Made by a program: the position numbers and the translations under genes. Positions 3,873-42,495 of a stretch of DNA of 44,047 nucleotides are shown in pieces. The notes beneath the pieces were generated by a model that worked only from the letters and a program-made list of their open reading frames with translations, searched no databases and was not told the DNA's origin. Source of the DNA: a virus (lineage: Duplodnaviria > Heunggongvirae > Uroviricota > Caudoviricetes). Positions within the stretch are counted from its first letter, which is position 1. Every line of letters starts with the position of its first letter. The stretch lies in IMG/VR virus record IMGVR_UViG_2671180473_000014; one strand, given 5' to 3'.

Positions 3873-4731
3873 TTGTCGGTATACCTCTCTCGTTTGCTCA
3901 GTTGTTCAGGAATATGGTGCAGCAGCTCGCCGTCACCACAGTAAATGGCGGCATGATTCGGCACCGATGAACCAAAACAGCACAGCAGCACATCGCCCGG
4001 CTGCGCCGTTGACAACGGCACCTGATACAGCCCTGTAGCCTCCAGATTATCCAGATAGAGATTCTGACCATTACGCCACCAGTCGTCCTCACGATGAAAA
4101 TCTGGCATCTCAATTCCCGCCAGATGGTAAGCGTCCCGGAACAGCGTGTAACAGTCCGTCACCCCGTGCTCAAAGCGCCGCCCGGTGAGNNNNNNNNNNN
4201 NNNNNNNNNNNNNNNNNNNNNNNNNNNNNNNNNNNNNNNNNNNNNNNNNNNNNNNNNNNNNNNNNNNNNNNNNNNNNNNNNNNNNNNNNNNNNNNNNNNN
4301 NNNNNNNNNNNNNNNNNNNNNNNNNNNNNNNNNNNNNNNNNNNNNNNNNNNNNNNNNNNNNNNNNNNNNNNNNNNNNNNNNNNNNNNNNNNNNNNNNNNN
4401 NNNNNNNNNNNNNNNNNNNNNNNNNNNNNNNNNNNNNNNNNNNNNNGACCAGCCACCACGACAAATCACTCTGCACCTGCAGCCGCCGGTCGGCCTCACT
4501 CAGCCAGGGCAGACCACCGGGGTGGCTGTGGACCAGCGCCACAATCTCACCCTGCATCTCTGCCTGCAGCCAGTCCTCCGGAGCCATCCGGAAATACTCC
4601 TCCGGCTCACCGGAAATATTCACGCAGGGAAAATATCTTTCCCCCTCCGGTGTTCTCACCACGAAGCCGCACGACTCCGCTGGCGCACATCGCCGGGCGT
4701 GCGCCAGAATCGCTGATTCTGTCTGTGTCAT
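3770..4731 (-). CDS. K: Tail assembly protein K (NlpC/P60 plus JAB/MPN type); interrupted by N-run 4190-4446 so true length unknown
   Basis: N-terminal part MTQTESAILAHARRCAPAESCGFVV...EMQGEIVALVHSHPGG (MPN-like) and C-terminal part ...LTGRRFEHGVTDCYTLFRDAYHLAGIEMPDF...NHAAIYCGDGELLHH on either side of the gap, same frame family as lambda K. Confidence 0.85.
4190..4446. other. Assembly gap (257 N) inside K
   Basis: Run of n characters. Confidence 1.
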
Positions 4732-23675: not shown

Positions 23676-24039
23676 NNNNNNNNNNNNNNNNNNNNNNNNN
23701 NNNNNNNNNNNNNNNNNNNNNNNNNNNNNNNNNNNNNNNNNNNNNNNNNNNNNNNNNNNNNNNNNNNNNNNNNNNNNNNNNNNNNNNNNNNNNNNNNNNN
23801 NNNNNNNNNNNNNNNNNNNNNNNNNNNNNNNNNNNNNNNNNNNNNNNNNNNNNNNNNNNNNNNNNNNNNNNNNNNNNNNNNNNNNNNNNNNNNNNNNNNN
23901 NNNNNNNNNNNNNNNNNNNNNNNNNNNNNNNNNNNNNNNNNNNNNNNNNNNNNNNNNNNNNNNNNNNNNNNNNNNNNNNNNNNNNNNNNNNNNNNNNNNN
24001 NNNNNNNNNNNNNNNNNNNNNNNNNNNNNNNNNNNNNNN
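23676..24039. other. Assembly gap (364 N) across the endolysin 3' end and the Rz 5' end
   Basis: Run of n characters. Confidence 1.
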
Positions 24040-25866: not shown

Positions 25867-26803
25867 TTTTCCTCACATATGTCATATAGTAAAGGATTAT
25901 ATATACCGTTGTTTTGGACGCTCAAACAGCGAATCAGATCAAATAAAACGCACATTTGTTAACATTTACACAAAGTCTGCGTGGGATATTCTGAAAGAAT
26001 ATCCATAATGTGGAGAGAATCTATTGAAGTGCATGGTGCCGGGTGCCTCCCGGTGAACAAAATGTTCGTGATACCTGTCGGCGACAGAAAAGGTTAATGG
26101 TATCACCCCACCGCACAGGGGGATTCACCATGCAGGAGTTTTCTTAGCAAACTCACTGCGCGCCCGGCAACTCCCAACCACATAAAATGCGGAGTTTGTG
26201 GCATTTATGCATATAACTCGCAGGAATTATCTTAAAAAACTGATGTCGATCCGGATTAAAAAGAAGCAGGTCATCATCAGATGACTGGAAAAAAGGAAAA
26301 CAAAAAATACTCATCATACAGTTTTGATTGCAGGGATGAGCCTGCTATGCACAATATGCAGAATATAAGCAAGATAAAAATATGCAGGCATATTATTTCG
26401 GATCTTGTTATTAACACAACCTTTTTAATAATCATTTGGCATACAATAAACCAGCCCAAAAAGAACCGCCTAAACAGGCGGTTGGTCAATACAAAGGATG
26501 CTTCGTCTTTATTATAGTAATCTGAGGCGTCGGGTGTCTTGTATCAGACAACATATTGTCCCGCTAAACAGCGAATTACAAACCACCCTGCAATGATCTC
26601 TCATCTCATTTTATATGAGTTGACGACATCAGGATAACGCATCATCAGCCCCTGCCAAGAAATATCAAAACTCCCGCCAGCAATGTGTTATCACAATATT
26701 GTAAAAAAAACACAGCACCGAAACTATAACTGGTCTCTGTTATAATTTGGAGCAGAAAGACCAGTTGCCCAACTAGCAGCATTCTCCCCTGCTTTCCTGA
26801 CGT

Positions 26804-27740: not shown

Positions 27741-28339
27741 TACGCAAACTCCAGTAGTTGTGCGGCCACATTTTCAACTTCCTCCTGAGAGGAGAATTTA
27801 CGGAACAGAATCCAGTTCCACAGCACATTCAGTACAGATTTATAAACCTGCTGAAACTCGACTTCGTCCATATTCGCAAAAGCGATGGATTTTGCCCGAC
27901 GCCCACGGCTACCGTCCGGATAAATATGCTCGGTGTAAAATCCGGCCTGAATGGTTACCCACTCGCGGAAAGCCTCAAACGACTTTAGCAACGCCGTATC
28001 CCGGGTTCTACGAGTCGCAACGGTGTTAAGGTATTGCTCTGCGGCATCACTCAGGGCTGGCGTGTGTTCCCGACCAACTGATTCGCACAGGTAATCAACG
28101 AAACCAGACAGCAGTTCTCGTTCGCGAGGCGTGATCGCCCCACCGACCGGAGTCCAGTAATCGAATCCCAGTTGCAGGAGTTTGAAAAAACGCTTGTGGA
28201 ATGCGTAGTTACGCACACGCTTAAAGTCTGCGTGTATCCACTCACCTATTTTGATTTGATGCAGAAAATCGCAACTCTCCGGCGTCGCCGGGAGAAGTAA
28301 ACCAGAAGAGGTTTGTTTGACCAGTTGTATATGCGCCAT
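27740..28339 (-). CDS. nin-region phage protein (DUF1367-like)
   Basis: 199-aa ORF MAHIQLVKQTSSGLLLPATPESCDFLHQIKIGEWIHADFKRVRNYAFHKRFFKLL...; ATGA-coupled to the YbcO-like gene; family assignment from memory only. Confidence 0.4.
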   Translation of the reverse strand: MAHIQLVKQTSSGLLLPATPESCDFLHQIKIGEWIHADFKRVRNYAFHKRFFKLLQLGFDYWTPVGGAITPRERELLSGFVDYLCESVGREHTPALSDAAEQYLNTVATRRTRDTALLKSFEAFREWVTIQAGFYTEHIYPDGSRGRRAKSIAFANMDEVEFQQVYKSVLNVLWNWILFRKFSSQEEVENVAAQLLEFA

Positions 28340-28619
28340 TTCTCAATCTCTCGATGGCGCAGCGCAGCAGATGCCAGTTGTTCAGGCTGACGAATAAAGT
28401 ATAAATAAACTGGCTATGGTGTAAAGCCCCACATAGCATGAACAAACACTACATATCAAATAGCTGGTACAAGGATAGAAATACGACACTTATTATTAAA
28501 AACGATTAGATAAATTACATTTTAATGTTATGCAAAAGTTCTTTTTTATCATAACATTTCAATAAAAGCATTACAGATGCAATCATCCCGTCATCATCAA
28601 TTATTTAAGGTGGTTAAAC

Positions 28620-28706
28620 ATGGAAAATAACAAGTTCGCACATCTCGCTCCTTTTTTATCCGTAATCCTTTTCGCTTGTTGTTTTATATGGGCATTATTT
28701 TTATAA
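28620..28706 (+). CDS. Small hydrophobic peptide (28 aa), candidate membrane peptide / toxin-like ORF
   Basis: ATG at 28620 preceded by AAGGTGG Shine-Dalgarno at good spacing; translation MENNKFAHLAPFLSVILFACCFIWALFL (one predicted transmembrane helix); lies in the AT-rich island. Confidence 0.3.
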   Translation: MENNKFAHLAPFLSVILFACCFIWALFL

Positions 28707-29110
28707 AGTAGCCACATGATAAGTTGCTGGAATCATATTTCCCACTCAAGTCATTAACATTTGATAAGATATATCTAAAAGGACGCCTTTACATTATTTA
28801 TGCGTATATAATTTATTTATATACACAGTAAAGGTATCCTGGGAAAATATTTATCGTTAAAAAATACATCATAAATAATTAAGCTGAAATTTCAGAACAC
28901 AACTAATACACACAATAAGGTTCAGTAACAGTAATCTATGTGGACTACATCGAGATTTTTTGATTAAACTTTAATAACTTATTCCTAACACACAGAATGC
29001 ATAAACTAAAAGTAAAACAAATAGTTATACGAAAAACAACCATATTTATTCTATCTTCTCCTCTAATCAACATATCAATTATGTGTTTCATAACAGCTTG
29101 ACATAACCCT

Positions 29111-29141
29111 CCAAAAGATGCATTTTTAATGCATGTTTTGG
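29111..29141 (+). promoter_or_regulatory. Imperfect 31-bp palindrome resembling an NsrR operator, overlapping the promoter of the yeaR-like gene
   Basis: CCAAAAGATGCATTTTTAATGCATGTTTTGG; core AAGATGCATTT-T-TAATGCATGTT (29115-29137) versus the recalled NsrR 11-1-11 consensus AAGATGCATTT-n-AAATGCATCTT; TTGACA at 29098-29103 upstream and SD GGAGGAGGTGG downstream. Confidence 0.5.
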
Positions 29142-29152
29142 AGGAGGTGGTT

Positions 29153-29491
29153 ATGACACACAAGAGAATTCCTAAAGATTGGGTAATCAAACGCTCAACT
29201 CCGTTCTTCACAAAAGAGAACGTACCTTCAGCGTTATTAACACATCATAATACAGCAGCAGGTGTTTTTGGGCAGTTGTGCGTAATGGAAGGCACTGTAA
29301 CATATTATGGTTTTACTGATGAGAATGCTACTGAACCGGAGATAAAAGTAGTCATTAATGCTGGCGCTTTTGCAACAAGCCCACCACAATACTGGCACCG
29401 TGTTGAACTAAGCGATGATGCTCAGTTTAATATTAACTTTTGGGTCGCTCCAGACTTTTCGGGCGAAAAAGTCTATAGCACCAAAAAATAG
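29153..29491 (+). CDS. YeaR-like DUF1971 protein
   Basis: 112 aa from ATG 29153 (MTHKRIPKDWVIKRSTPFFTKENVPSALLTHHNTAAGVFGQLCVMEGTVTYYGFTDENATEPE...PPQYWHRVELSDDAQFNINFWVAPDF); pattern RSTPF...VM.G.V.Y.G..DE..EP...AG.FA..PP..WH..E..DD..FNI.F.VAP shared with E. coli YeaR as recalled. Confidence 0.6.
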   Translation: MTHKRIPKDWVIKRSTPFFTKENVPSALLTHHNTAAGVFGQLCVMEGTVTYYGFTDENATEPEIKVVINAGAFATSPPQYWHRVELSDDAQFNINFWVAPDFSGEKVYSTKK

Positions 29492-29520
29492 ATGATCATA
29501 TTAAAAATGCTTTAACAGTC

Positions 29521-29560
29521 AGACCCGGCAGGGCTATCCCCGACGGGTCTCATTTTTGTA
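29521..29560 (+). terminator. Intrinsic terminator after the yeaR-like gene
   Basis: AGACCCGGCAGGGCTATCCCCGACGGGTCTCATTTTTGT: GC-rich stem (GACCCG.../...CGGGTC) followed by a T-run, 30 nt after the stop codon. Confidence 0.5.
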
Positions 29561-30111
29561 AATATATTGGTTCTACATTGACAGGAGACTTCAACCATAA
29601 GAAGTAATCTGAATACTTGAGCAATAAATTTACTTAAGATTAATGAGCGCACCTTGCCGGACAAAGATAAACCAAGGTAACACCTTTTTTCTAGCCAGTA
29701 TGTAATCAATCAGAAAGCCGCTCCATAAGAACAACAGCAAGACAATAAATTGCCATTACAGCCGCAATAGCCAGCGCACATTTGAGAACCAGCACGACAA
29801 CCCCCTGTATTAGACGCACACCAGTCCTGATAAATATGAGGCTGTCTCGTCAGTGATTCAATACAACTATTGGGTATAGTTTCTGTGATTTTATTCTGTA
29901 GAAATGGAACACAACAACCAGTCACCACCAGCACTTCCTTAAATGCTCTAAGTCAGAAACAAGCCAACATTTTAGTCCGCTTTGAGCGATCTGCAGACAT
30001 TGCTAGCAGCCTTCTGTGTGAATTCTCAGGGAGCAGGTCGGCATAGCATCACGTTGAGGCTCTTACCCTACTTGTTCACACCAACCCTAACTCCACAGAC
30101 TGATTCATAAA

Positions 30112-31113
30112 TTAGTAATCTGCGTGTTTCGCACTTTTCAGAAATGCTTTCATATTTTCATTAGGTCGCTCAATTTCGAAGTTACTTCCATATAACTCTT
30201 GTAATTTTGGCCATAACTTACTTAATAACCCTCTCCTGCGATAAAATGGATGTATCCAAACGGTAGATAGGTACGGAGAATTTGCATTTGAATTGTTTAT
30301 TGTGACCAGCCCAACTAAACATTGTCGATAACCACTATTATCCATTGATTGTATTTCTTCGACGAATGGATACGCGATTACATCAGTCCAACCATGATCG
30401 GTTGTATCCCATTGCATTCCGTCATGACATTCCTTCGACTGATAGCGGCGTAAAGCTACACACGCGAGCTTTTGCCAATCTGGAGAATTAATTGTGATCT
30501 CTTCATCGTATGACGCGCCTATTGGAGCGGGTATTGGTCTGATTAATCCAGCATGGCATTCATCATAGAACTTCATGTTTCCCTCAGAAACGTTGTGTAC
30601 GTTGGGTTGCTCCATGTGTGCGCCATTCAAAAATAGCTCTGATAGTAGTGTATCTACACTGTAATCTTTATTGATTATTGTCGGCTTAGAGTTTTTCTTA
30701 TTAAGGCCGCGAGTAACGATTTTTTGATCAATGTTAACAACATGGAATAATCCGTCGGGGAGGCTAGCGAACCACGATGGGGCATCGGACCAGAATAGCA
30801 TGCCTTTTGTACTTCTTAAGAGTTTAATTAAGTTAATACAAGCTTCTTCACTAGTCTTGCCGTTGATGCGAAGTATGTTAGGACTAAAGTAATATTCATC
30901 CATATCAGGGAATGCAGCTTCGCAAAACTCCTGTACATAATTTAGCACCTGGATTCTACAGAGATCATCATAGCTGGTAATAACTAAGGGGGTATCTTCA
31001 TTACTATTATGATTATCAATAATGCAATCTATAGCGAGACTTACTGCTTTGCGTATCACTTCAGTTGAATCTAACGACTCTAAAAATTTTGTCTTTCGTG
31101 TGCGAATATCCAT
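30112..31113 (-). CDS. Hypothetical protein B (333 aa) of the AT-rich two-gene operon; C-terminal region weakly GNAT-like
   Basis: ATG 31111-31113, 15 nt after the stop of gene A; C-terminal ...CLVGLVTINNSNANSPYLSTVWIHPFYRRRGLLSKLWPKLQELYG resembles an acetyltransferase beta4-alphaC core (R-x-x-G motif), imperfectly. Confidence 0.55.
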   Translation of the reverse strand: MDIRTRKTKFLESLDSTEVIRKAVSLAIDCIIDNHNSNEDTPLVITSYDDLCRIQVLNYVQEFCEAAFPDMDEYYFSPNILRINGKTSEEACINLIKLLRSTKGMLFWSDAPSWFASLPDGLFHVVNIDQKIVTRGLNKKNSKPTIINKDYSVDTLLSELFLNGAHMEQPNVHNVSEGNMKFYDECHAGLIRPIPAPIGASYDEEITINSPDWQKLACVALRRYQSKECHDGMQWDTTDHGWTDVIAYPFVEEIQSMDNSGYRQCLVGLVTINNSNANSPYLSTVWIHPFYRRRGLLSKLWPKLQELYGSNFEIERPNENMKAFLKSAKHADY

Positions 31114-31128
31114 GTATGACCTGCGCTA

Positions 31129-32151
31129 TTAAAATTCATGAATGAACGGTTTGTCATCTGGTTGCAAAATGGTGGTTTTATTCGTTGCTACATTTAAACT
31201 GTTGTAGAGCATAATTGCCAGGTTCGATGCATTTTCAATCAGCGTTTCAAGATCCTGGTCTGTAATCACTACGAGGTTCCCTTCTTTATCCTTTCCACCA
31301 CGATGCACTAAGTGATTTCGATTGAGGGTTGCCAATTCAATAGCTTCTATCGGACAGTCTTTTTGTACTTTTATATCGAATGTAGCTTCATAGCGGTCGA
31401 TTACCTTTTTAGTGCTATGCCAGCTTGCACTGATCAAGTGTTCCTTGATTGACCTGATTAGCTCTCCCCTAATTTTCTCGATGGGTTCACCCTTGAAAGG
31501 CAACGCAGCAATATCTTTGCTTACTTTAAATTCAGTCTTACCTTTTTCTATACAATTGGCTATGTAGACATCATCTTTCTCTATAGAATTAATGAATAGC
31601 TCAACATAAAGCGTTTCCAAAGCTGTAATAACATTCGTGTAGAGCAAACTAAGCAAGTGGTTTTTTTGCTGTTGTTCAGTTTTATCTTTTGCAAGTTTTT
31701 TTATTTTATCGATATTATCAATGAATTTTAAATACGGATTACCGGAAGACGTTACAGCGTCGTAGATATCATCATCGTACCAATCATCTATATTATTTGA
31801 GTTTCCAGACCAGTCAAAACATTGTGTTTGTAATTCATCTACTAATTCCTCAATATACTCAGATTTAACATATTGACCGAAGATGGATTGTAGTTCTTCG
31901 CTCGCATCATACGGCCCGCCATATATGTAAGCATAGCCACCTTCTCTACTTTCATACGGACAAGCATTTGCCGGATCTTCAAAGTTTTCAAAGAACCAGT
32001 TTTTCATTACTTCGAGTTGATCTTTTTTGCTTATGTATTTTAAAGATTTTAGTGGAACTTTCTTTCCATTAACCTCGAAAACAATTTTCACGATGTAACG
32101 CTCCCTTGTATCAATTGCGCAACTATTATACCACAGCGAAATACAGGGCAT
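31129..32151 (-). CDS. Hypothetical protein A (about 340 aa) of the AT-rich two-gene operon; lone R-x4-H (HEPN-like) motif near the C-terminus
   Basis: Likely start ATG 32149-32151 with AGGAGG Shine-Dalgarno 6 nt upstream (MPCISLWYNSCAIDTRERYIVKIVFEVNGKK...); the ORF track extends it to 32220 via an upstream alternative start; contains ...ELATLNRNHLVHRGGKD... Confidence 0.55.
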   Translation of the reverse strand: MPCISLWYNSCAIDTRERYIVKIVFEVNGKKVPLKSLKYISKKDQLEVMKNWFFENFEDPANACPYESREGGYAYIYGGPYDASEELQSIFGQYVKSEYIEELVDELQTQCFDWSGNSNNIDDWYDDDIYDAVTSSGNPYLKFIDNIDKIKKLAKDKTEQQQKNHLLSLLYTNVITALETLYVELFINSIEKDDVYIANCIEKGKTEFKVSKDIAALPFKGEPIEKIRGELIRSIKEHLISASWHSTKKVIDRYEATFDIKVQKDCPIEAIELATLNRNHLVHRGGKDKEGNLVVITDQDLETLIENASNLAIMLYNSLNVATNKTTILQPDDKPFIHEF

Positions 32152-32289
32152 AACCTGCCTCCTTAAACTAACATACCATGAGCCAGCAATGTCCGCTATT
32201 GGCACAAAGCGGACAACCACGCTAGCTCTCCCCTGTGCCAGAAAAATGTCAATTTACATATGAACTAATGCTCTTTGATCTAGTAACGT

Positions 32290-42306: not shown

Positions 42307-42495
42307 ATGTATAAAATTACCGCCACTATTGAAAAGGAAGGTGGCACTCCTACTAACTGGACAAGATATTCAAAATCTAAACTAACGAAATCAGAATGCG
42401 AAAAAATGCTCTCAGGTAAAAAAGAAGCAGGCGTTTCCAGAGAGCAGAAAGTAAAACTGATAAATTTTAATTGCGAGAAACTTCAGTCCTCGTGA
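42307..42495 (+). CDS. ydaC: YdaC
   Basis: MYKITATIEKEGGTPTNWTRYSKSKLTKSECEKMLSGKKEAGVSREQKVKLINFNCEKLQSS; alternative start at 42295; Rac synteny. Confidence 0.6.
   Translation: MYKITATIEKEGGTPTNWTRYSKSKLTKSECEKMLSGKKEAGVSREQKVKLINFNCEKLQSS

Follow-up and report, generated by a model that had tools for sequence, protein, structure and literature searches.

A prophage-borne DUF1971 gene of Escherichia coli with a predicted operator for the host nitric oxide sensor NsrR

Does a prophage of Escherichia coli carry a gene that answers to the nitric oxide (NO) sensor of its host? The question is raised by a stretch of 44,047 nucleotides of Caudoviricetes DNA (IMG/VR record IMGVR_UViG_2671180473_000014; referred to in its entirety as the window), in which a gene for a 112-amino-acid (aa) DUF1971 protein lies behind a palindrome resembling an operator for the repressor NsrR. 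A sequence-only reading of the window had pointed to these features and suggested a moron, i.e., a phage cargo gene, wired into a host regulon. Our analyses support this suggestion computationally, based on the matrix score of the predicted operator, a layout shared with ~50 orthologues, and the position of the gene in low-GC cargo DNA on the strand opposite to that of the surrounding phage genes. We estimate at about 80% the probability that positions 29098-29557 constitute a self-contained cargo gene of a Rac-type lambdoid prophage that is repressed by NsrR and induced by NO. This prediction builds on the following elements.

29153-29491, plus strand: coding sequence of the 112-aa DUF1971 protein (RefSeq WP_000149055.1), with an ATG start and a TAG stop at 29489-29491
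29098-29103, plus strand: predicted −35 hexamer TTGACA, a perfect consensus that is invariant among E. coli alleles
29108-29144, no strand assigned: 37-bp palindrome CCTCCAAAAGATGCATT-TTT-AATGCATGTTTTGGAGG, read from the sequence, with 17-nt arms and a 3-nt centre
29115-29137, no strand assigned: predicted NsrR operator from the NsrR matrix, an 11-1-11 inverted repeat AAGATGCATTT-T-TAATGCATGTT (whole: AAGATGCATTTTTAATGCATGTT)
29121-29126, plus strand: predicted −10 hexamer CATTTT (box positions 7-12), placed from the orthologue layout at a 17-bp spacer from the −35
29144-29150, plus strand: Shine-Dalgarno sequence GAGGTGG, the invariant part of GGAGGAGGTGG, 3-9 nt upstream of the ATG
29521-29557, plus strand: probable intrinsic terminator, consisting of a hairpin at 29521-29550 and the U-run UUUUU at 29553-29557

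We scored the operator with a symmetrised NsrR matrix made from the 26 distinct sequences among 27 sites of the 11-1-11 type that were identified in E. coli CFT073 by chromatin immunoprecipitation sequencing (ChIP-seq) of NsrR (Mehta et al. 2015; PMC5320621, Table 4). The site at 29115-29137 scored 27.8 bits, a value exceeded only by ytfE among the 26 published sites, which scored from 12.2 to 30.3 bits (8.8 to 29.6 bits in leave-one-out scoring). The exact tail probability per position was 3.6e-11 for a uniform background and 1.3e-9 for a background of 70% A+T, and ~1e-6 to 6e-5 sites of this strength are expected by chance in 44 kb; the second-ranked site within the 44-kb window reached 13.8 bits. 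The likeness of the core to an 11-1-11 NsrR operator, proposed in the sequence-only reading, is thus borne out by the matrix. The surrounding palindrome is indeed near-perfect, with G29117/G29135 as its single mismatch, and it spans 37 bp rather than the 31 bp first described, being made up of the NsrR box and 7 complementary bp on either side.

The NsrR box begins 11 nt after the perfect −35 hexamer and holds the −10-like hexamer, and the same layout is present in orthologues. For this comparison, we used 80 loci from species-representative genomes (L-numbers are the locus labels) and scanned the 300 nt upstream of each DUF1971 gene with the matrix. Approximately 50 enterobacterial chromosomal orthologues, from Kluyvera, Leclercia, Citrobacter, Klebsiella, Raoultella, Salmonella, Buttiauxella, Yokenella, and other genera, have a 24- to 30-bit box ending 15-27 nt before the ATG, and 29 of these boxed loci lie downstream of dsbB. 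The second-best match per 6-kb locus did not exceed 14.4 bits, with the exception of three marine loci. Aligned on the box, ~35 orthologous loci have a −35-like hexamer 11-12 nt upstream of it (TTTACA in Kluyvera and Leclercia, TTGACG or TTGACC in Klebsiella and Raoultella, and TTGCCT in Citrobacter), and box positions 7-12 read TATATT, TATTTT, or CATATT (YATWTT) at 17-18 bp from this hexamer. Based on this layout, we place the transcription start of the prophage gene near 29133, probably within the right half-site. RNA folding gave no notable structure for the leader from 29133 onward, and GAGGTGG is invariant in eight of eight aligned E. coli/Shigella alleles, while positions 29140-29143 vary. 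Downstream of the gene, the hairpin at 29521-29550 (−19.4 kcal/mol, with a modest z of −2.0) has a 7-bp G+C-rich outer stem and is followed by CAUUUUUG, which fits an intrinsic terminator; the gene would therefore have the Shine-Dalgarno sequence and terminator of its own that had been ascribed to it. A simple consensus scanner called neither a plus-strand promoter nor a terminator at the locus, the former because the −10 is weak (3/6 consensus bases) and the latter because the loop is longer than 8 nt; comparative evidence and folding are what the predicted promoter and terminator rest on. Reading the sequence upstream of the prophage −35 by eye, with no matrix run, we saw neither NarL heptamers nor an FNR site, and the best match to a Fur box in the window (11/19) was at background level.

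These elements are consistent with regulation by promoter occlusion. The putative sigma-70 promoter (TTGACA, 17 bp, CATTTT) would be overlapped by a high-affinity NsrR operator extending from the spacer through the −10 to approximately +4. In an unstressed lysogen, the host Fe-S repressor NsrR would occupy this operator and block RNA polymerase, and the gene would be off. NO would damage the NsrR cluster, upon which the repressor would leave the operator, and a short-leader mRNA would be made from ~29133, translated via GAGGTGG, and terminated by the hairpin at 29521-29557. This mRNA would encode a protein of the STM1808 type, which in Salmonella is reported to aid NO resistance and virulence, and the prophage would in this way give E. 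coli an STM1808-type gene already wired to the host NO regulon.

The family of the protein is clear. It matches Pfam PF09313 (DUF1971) over the full profile (positions 1-80/80) at 92 bits (cut-off, 23.1; E = 2.3e-26), as the sequence-only reading had expected. The best structure match of the 112-aa protein is PDB 3DL3 (E = 3.5e-59; ~80% identity over 111 residues), and the YeaR structure 3BB6 gives E = 1.6e-24. Multiple alignment puts the identity between YeaR and the prophage protein at only 43%. Of the earlier description as YeaR-like, the family assignment stands; a copy of yeaR is ruled out by this low identity, by a downstream region in which the terminator is followed by unrelated DNA instead of yoaG, and by the ~80% identity to a Vibrio/Salmonella clade. 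In a large protein database, the subfamily is represented at 73-82% identity in Salmonella, Klebsiella, Raoultella, Kluyvera, Citrobacter, Vibrio, Aliivibrio, Photobacterium, Shewanella, and others. The Salmonella orthologue is 79% identical and, in S. enterica subsp. diarizonae, sits after nhaB-dsbB; going by the LT2 numbering (nhaB, STM1806; dsbB, STM1807), we take this dsbB-linked gene to be STM1808. Residues H32 and H82 are invariant across 19 sequences including YeaR, and presumably correspond to zinc ligands of STM1808. Sequence comparison thus assigns the prophage protein to the STM1808/Vibrio "TehB" (3DL3) subfamily of cupin-like DUF1971 proteins, and at ~80% identity its predicted fold is effectively known from 3DL3. 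A tehB homologue was placed in the predicted NsrR regulon of enterobacteria and Photobacterium profundum by Rodionov et al. (2005), and STM1808 is an NsrR-regulon gene with a role in virulence according to the statement in PMC7527575 that cites Karlinsey et al. (2012).

Orthologues outside the enterobacteria point to NO by another route. An NsrR box upstream of the gene itself is lacking in most orthologues from Vibrionaceae and Shewanella. In 20 loci from Vibrio, Aliivibrio, Photobacterium, Shewanella, Agarivorans, and Oceanospirillales (L031, L036, L040, L044, L048, L050, L054, L058, L059, L062, L064-L066, L069, L071, L072, L075, L079, L081, and L082), the DUF1971 gene comes immediately after, and in the orientation of, norV-norW, which encode the flavorubredoxin NO reductase and its reductase. 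In Neptunomonas (L077), boxes of 22-24 bits are located at the promoter of a two-gene operon for a Fer2_3/Fer4 protein and the DUF1971 protein, and a second set lies between a divergent gene for an Rrf2 regulator and sufB. Judged from gene order and predicted sites, the DUF1971 family is found in NO-stress units under at least two regulatory arrangements.

Three further observations were made on these loci. In Aliivibrio, a gene for an NAD-binding oxidoreductase is located between norV-norW and the DUF1971 gene. NsrR-like boxes of 18-24 bits occur outside the immediate upstream region in Neptunomonas and Parendozoicomonas (L077 at ~1966 and ~4069; L067 at ~1962 and ~1997; L070 at ~2315 and ~2339). 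Finally, L004-L025 (Kluyvera, Leclercia, Buttiauxella, Pseudescherichia, and Silvania), L056, and L076 have a Fur-box-like element (e.g., GATAATGAGATTTATTATC; 13-17/19 consensus positions) that immediately precedes the −35, at a fixed distance of 24-26 nt from the downstream NsrR box (15 nt in L056); the prophage copy and the dsbB-linked copies do not have it. This element suggests dual Fur/NsrR control in Kluyvera/Leclercia-type lineages.

The location of the gene in a prophage, which had been assumed in the sequence-only reading, is confirmed: over 1772 bp, the window matches E. coli CP084096 with 100% identity, in a Rac-type prophage adjacent to ttcA. In that prophage, the module is flanked on one side by the replication genes ydaU and ydaV, two hypothetical genes, and IS2, and on the other side by DUF1367-YbcO-DUF1133 (Q-like) genes. 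The DUF1971 gene is on the plus strand, and the flanking replication and nin/Q phage genes are on the minus strand. The cargo stretch of which it is part (~28300-32200) has 29-45% GC compared to ~50% in the flanking phage genes. In other strains, the module lies beside the same nin/Q genes, while the cargo on the opposite side differs (hok/gef and a gene for a KilA-N protein). A 501-nt query retrieved the module from 464 of 5426 complete E. coli genomes; it invariably lies in Rac-type prophages, and isolates from humans, poultry, and pigs are among the carriers. It is also present in the complete genomes of three phages (vB_EcoS-673R7, -613R10, and -666R9), and in phage genome ON470616 it is at the same position. 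The query detected no further copy of the subfamily in the 5426 complete genomes; since it finds no more distant copy, E. coli appears to be without a chromosomal gene of this subfamily. Altogether, the gene lies between phage modules on the opposite strand, has a predicted promoter and terminator of its own, is patchily present, and is atypical in GC content, as is characteristic of morons.

The near-ideal box of the window is a rare allele, and most carriers have a weaker left half-site. A 71-nt promoter query with the window's sequence matched exactly in 5 genomes, and an exact-match census of alleles among 458 carriers had the following result.

Window allele: left half-site AAGATGCATTT; 5 exact matches; 27.8 bits
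Allele C: left half-site AACACGCATTT; 143 exact matches; 20.7 bits
Allele D: as allele C, with G29143>T in addition; 101 exact matches; 20.7 bits
Allele F: left half-site AAGGTGCATTT; 99 exact matches; 26.6 bits
Other alleles: various left half-sites; ~110 matches; at least 17.7 bits where sampled

Among the alleles, the left half-site scores between 5.4 and 15.6 bits, while the right half-site (12.1 bits), the −35, GAGGTGG, and the start of the coding sequence are invariant. Boxes range from 17.7 to 27.8 bits, and all of the change is in the left half-site and the flanks. When the window was compared with L083-L088, L003, L089, and L090, 5-7 of the 10-11 differences across 871 nt between close alleles fell into the 37-nt palindrome (Fisher p, 2e-5 to 4e-8). 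Behind four promoter alleles other than that of the window, the encoded protein is unchanged (WP_000149055.1). Several changes in the left arm have a partner in the right arm: 29140 G>T accompanies 29112 C>A, and 29143 G>T accompanies 29109 C>A. Allele D, with one side only of the latter pair, represents an intermediate. G29117>C abolishes the sole mismatch of the window's palindrome, and T29119>C creates one.

A similar extension of the palindrome by 7-11 bp, up to 43-45 bp in total, is present in Citrobacter and Yokenella orthologues (L026, L027, L029, L030, L032, L037, L043, L045-L047, L049, L051, and L060, at approximately positions 2939-2985). Their flanks vary in a compensatory manner (GCATCTAT/ATAGATGC, GCATTTAT/ATAAATGC, GCACCTAT/ATAGGTGC, and TCATCTAT/ATAGATGA; further covarying examples are TGGCATCTAT/ATAGATGCCA, TGGCATTTAT/ATAAATGCCA, and TGGCACCTAT/ATAGGTGCCA). 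Orthologues of Kluyvera, Leclercia, Klebsiella, Raoultella, and Salmonella keep the box and have no such extension (0-3 bp). Among 57 distinct sequences, 17 have an extension of at least 5 bp, compared to 1.7 expected from permutation, and the covariation score is 0.281 compared to 0.195 for shuffled sequences and at most 0.196 with slid partner columns.

Several points weigh against an NsrR-controlled prophage gene and have to be set beside the evidence above. The strong box of the window is present in only 5 of 458 carriers; at least 244 of the 458 have AACACGCATTT, with a C at the nearly invariant T5, which lowers the half-site to 8.4 bits and the box to 20.7 bits, and repression may be leaky or differently tuned in most lysogens. 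The putative −10 hexamer CATTTT, matching 3/6 consensus bases, was missed by the generic promoter scan. A literature search found no ChIP, electrophoretic mobility shift, reporter, or mapped-start data for the locus. The CFT073 list contains no such site and K-12 does not have the gene; for this reason, published NsrR ChIP studies could not have revealed the locus. Finally, NsrR binding leaves unexplained the 7 complementary bp in each flank that are kept by compensatory changes; binding of a homodimeric protein does not account for covariation of this kind.

The last point bears on the alternative that survives best, to which we give even odds and which complements NsrR control of the promoter, competing only with the view that selection maintains the long palindrome as a structure. 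Here, NsrR would account for the central 23 bp only, and the 7-11 extra bp and the cluster of single-nucleotide polymorphisms (SNPs) would be by-products of quasipalindrome template switching, a repair process in which one arm is copied onto the other. We prefer this account of the flanks because they are weakly constrained, consisting of promoter spacer on the left and the start of the leader on the right. Template switching reportedly perfects quasipalindromes, as described by Ripley and by Lovett, and the clustering of SNPs in the palindrome with an unchanged protein, the paired changes, the one-sided intermediate, and the removal of the mismatch by G29117>C all fit such a process, as does the confinement of the extensions to two clades, the E. 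coli prophages and Citrobacter/Yokenella. However, T29119>C adds a mismatch, which indicates that not all changes are templated, and alleles H80, H81, and H43 have lost the extension. Moreover, selection for a cruciform or hairpin would give the same pattern. We regard as doubtful the corresponding proposal that the palindrome is an evolutionary tuning point at which Rac-type prophages reset NsrR repression of their cargo, with the arms, maintained by compensatory substitutions here and independently in Citrobacter, forming a selected cruciform or hairpin that acts on the promoter or on repressor loading.

The allele series could also be read as decay, with the module a passenger whose eroding operator would account for the cluster of SNPs and which brings E. 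coli no NO-related benefit. In most alleles the left half-site is indeed down to 5.4-8.4 bits, and Rac-type prophages are often defective, as illustrated by CP084096 with IS2 and frameshifted genes nearby. We nevertheless consider decay improbable, given that the open reading frame (ORF) is intact and its protein identical across the sampled alleles, that the right half-site, the −35, and the ribosome-binding site are invariant, that all alleles score at least 17.7 bits and thereby exceed many ChIP-confirmed sites, and that three phages with complete sequenced genomes carry the module.

Alternatively, the main role of the palindrome might be at the RNA level, as a hairpin of the 5' leader masking the ribosome-binding site, for translational control, as a thermometer, or to stabilise the mRNA, with its likeness to an NsrR site being secondary. 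RNA of 29108-29144 is predicted to form a 17-bp stem of −25.1 kcal/mol (z, −4.9; 0 of 200 shuffles as stable), the 3' arm of which ends within the first GGAGG, and the flanks outside the NsrR box show compensatory changes in both the E. coli alleles and the Citrobacter orthologues. Yet a start at ~29133 falls within the 3' arm, which would leave the 5' arm out of the mRNA of the gene itself, and the invariant GAGGTGG at 29144-29150 lies almost wholly outside the stem, whereas the paired GGAG at 29140-29143 varies. The flank pairing is also missing in the five genera that have 0-3 bp of extension, in Citrobacter the hairpin is clear of the ribosome-binding site, and an Rfam scan of the whole window gave nothing at the DUF1971 locus, its only matches being RalA and STnc100 at other positions. 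Based on the position of the start, the ribosome-binding site outside the stem, the unconserved pairing, and the lack of an Rfam family, we judge a hairpin or thermometer sequestering the Shine-Dalgarno sequence to be very unlikely.

Least likely of all is that the palindrome serves another dimeric regulator (a phage repressor or an Rrf2 protein such as IscR) or is a minus-strand terminator or processing site: early prophage transcripts running from the replication genes to Q would traverse it on the minus strand, Rrf2-family sites are alike, and the Neptunomonas boxes adjoin an uncharacterised Rrf2 gene beside sufB, but the palindrome matches the matrix of NsrR ChIP-seq sites almost as well as ytfE does, the same box at the same promoter position in ~50 non-phage chromosomal loci rules out a phage-specific repressor, and the hairpin is not followed by a U-run on either strand.

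The predicted NsrR-controlled prophage gene can be compared with several known systems. It is closest to Salmonella STM1808, with which it shares the subfamily (79% identity), the single-gene organisation, an NsrR box between the −35 and the ATG, and H32/H82. STM1808 is a fixed chromosomal gene after dsbB with the box 27 nt from the ATG, whereas the prophage gene is mobile cargo whose box lies 15 nt from the ATG, whose −35 is perfect, and whose palindrome is longer. The E. coli yeaR-yoaG operon is repressed by NsrR and activated by NarL. Like it, the prophage unit combines a DUF1971 gene with an 11-1-11 NsrR site (yeaR site, AAATGGTATTTAAAATGCAAATT); unlike it, it encodes a protein of 43% identity, has no yoaG partner, and has a box of 27.8 bits compared to 22.7 bits for yeaR. 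The operators of ytfE and hmp in E. coli have the same 11-1-11 motif, and the ytfE site (AAGATGCATTTAAAATGCATCTT) differs from the prophage box at 3/23 positions, one of which is the central spacer; those operators serve core-genome functions in iron-sulfur repair and NO detoxification, in contrast to the mobile and polymorphic prophage site. The protein of known structure from Aliivibrio fischeri, 3DL3 ("tellurite resistance protein B"), is ~80% identical over its full length, but in A. fischeri ES114, as in 19 other marine loci, the gene follows norV-norW without an NsrR box of its own, and the link to NO is through a different regulatory unit. Fur-controlled stx1 and the bor and lom genes of lambda are examples of phage morons under host regulators. 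Like these, the DUF1971 module is an independent transcription unit in a prophage, by prediction, that would be active in the lysogen and lies outside the phage modules; it differs in that its predicted controller is the NO sensor NsrR. As far as our literature search showed, no NsrR-controlled prophage gene has been described, and the search returned no description of a prophage-borne E. coli DUF1971 module or of a polymorphic self-complementary operator.

The surroundings of the module gave additional observations. Two low-GC cargo genes, both hypothetical in RefSeq, adjoin the DUF1971 gene.

30112-31113, minus strand: gene for a 333-aa protein whose C-terminus weakly matches GNAT (E = 9e-4, below the cut-off)
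31129-32220, minus strand: gene for a 363-aa protein with a weak match to a HEPN/RES N-terminal domain (E = 2e-4, below the cut-off)
29706-29819, minus strand: 37-codon ORF for a very hydrophobic peptide (MRLIQGVVVLVLKCALAIAAVMAIYCLAVVLMERLSD) with no Pfam match
28340-29097: ~760 bp of 29-36% GC with no ORF of more than 88 codons, between the DUF1367 gene and the DUF1971 promoter
42313-42491, minus strand: RalA, antitoxin small RNA of the Rac RalR/RalA system (Rfam, 225 bits, above the gathering score)
25977-26163, minus strand: STnc100, just downstream of the Q-like gene (Rfam, 86.6 bits, above the gathering score)
1821-2120, 4190-4446, and 23676-24039: three masked runs of N, 921 bases in total

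PADLOC gave no match for the two cargo genes or the DUF1971 protein; the two genes could be an uncharacterised defence or toxin pair. The 37-codon ORF occupies the place that a hok/gef toxin gene has in related prophages (L090, 7518-7643) and could be either a chance ORF or a small membrane toxin. The 1772-bp query includes 28340-29097, and parts of this query match ~2000 E. coli genomes, well above the number with the DUF1971 gene, which identifies this stretch as a widespread lambdoid intergenic segment.

NsrR-controlled DUF1971 genes as such are already known from yeaR in E. coli and STM1808 in Salmonella, and a tehB-like member was predicted in 2005. What appears to be new is that E. coli obtains an STM1808-type gene only via a mobile Rac-type prophage, and that, by prediction, this gene arrives with a ready-made operator for the NO sensor of the host. 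Approximately 1 in 12 complete E. coli genomes carries the module. Confirmation would make the module a clear example of phage-borne cargo placed under a stress regulon of the host. The operator polymorphism would provide a natural allele series for the effects of NsrR half-sites on repression, and the operator may also show quasipalindrome mutagenesis at work in a natural regulatory site. For E. coli itself, the module could add to the differences between strains in the survival of NO derived from the host or from nitrite.

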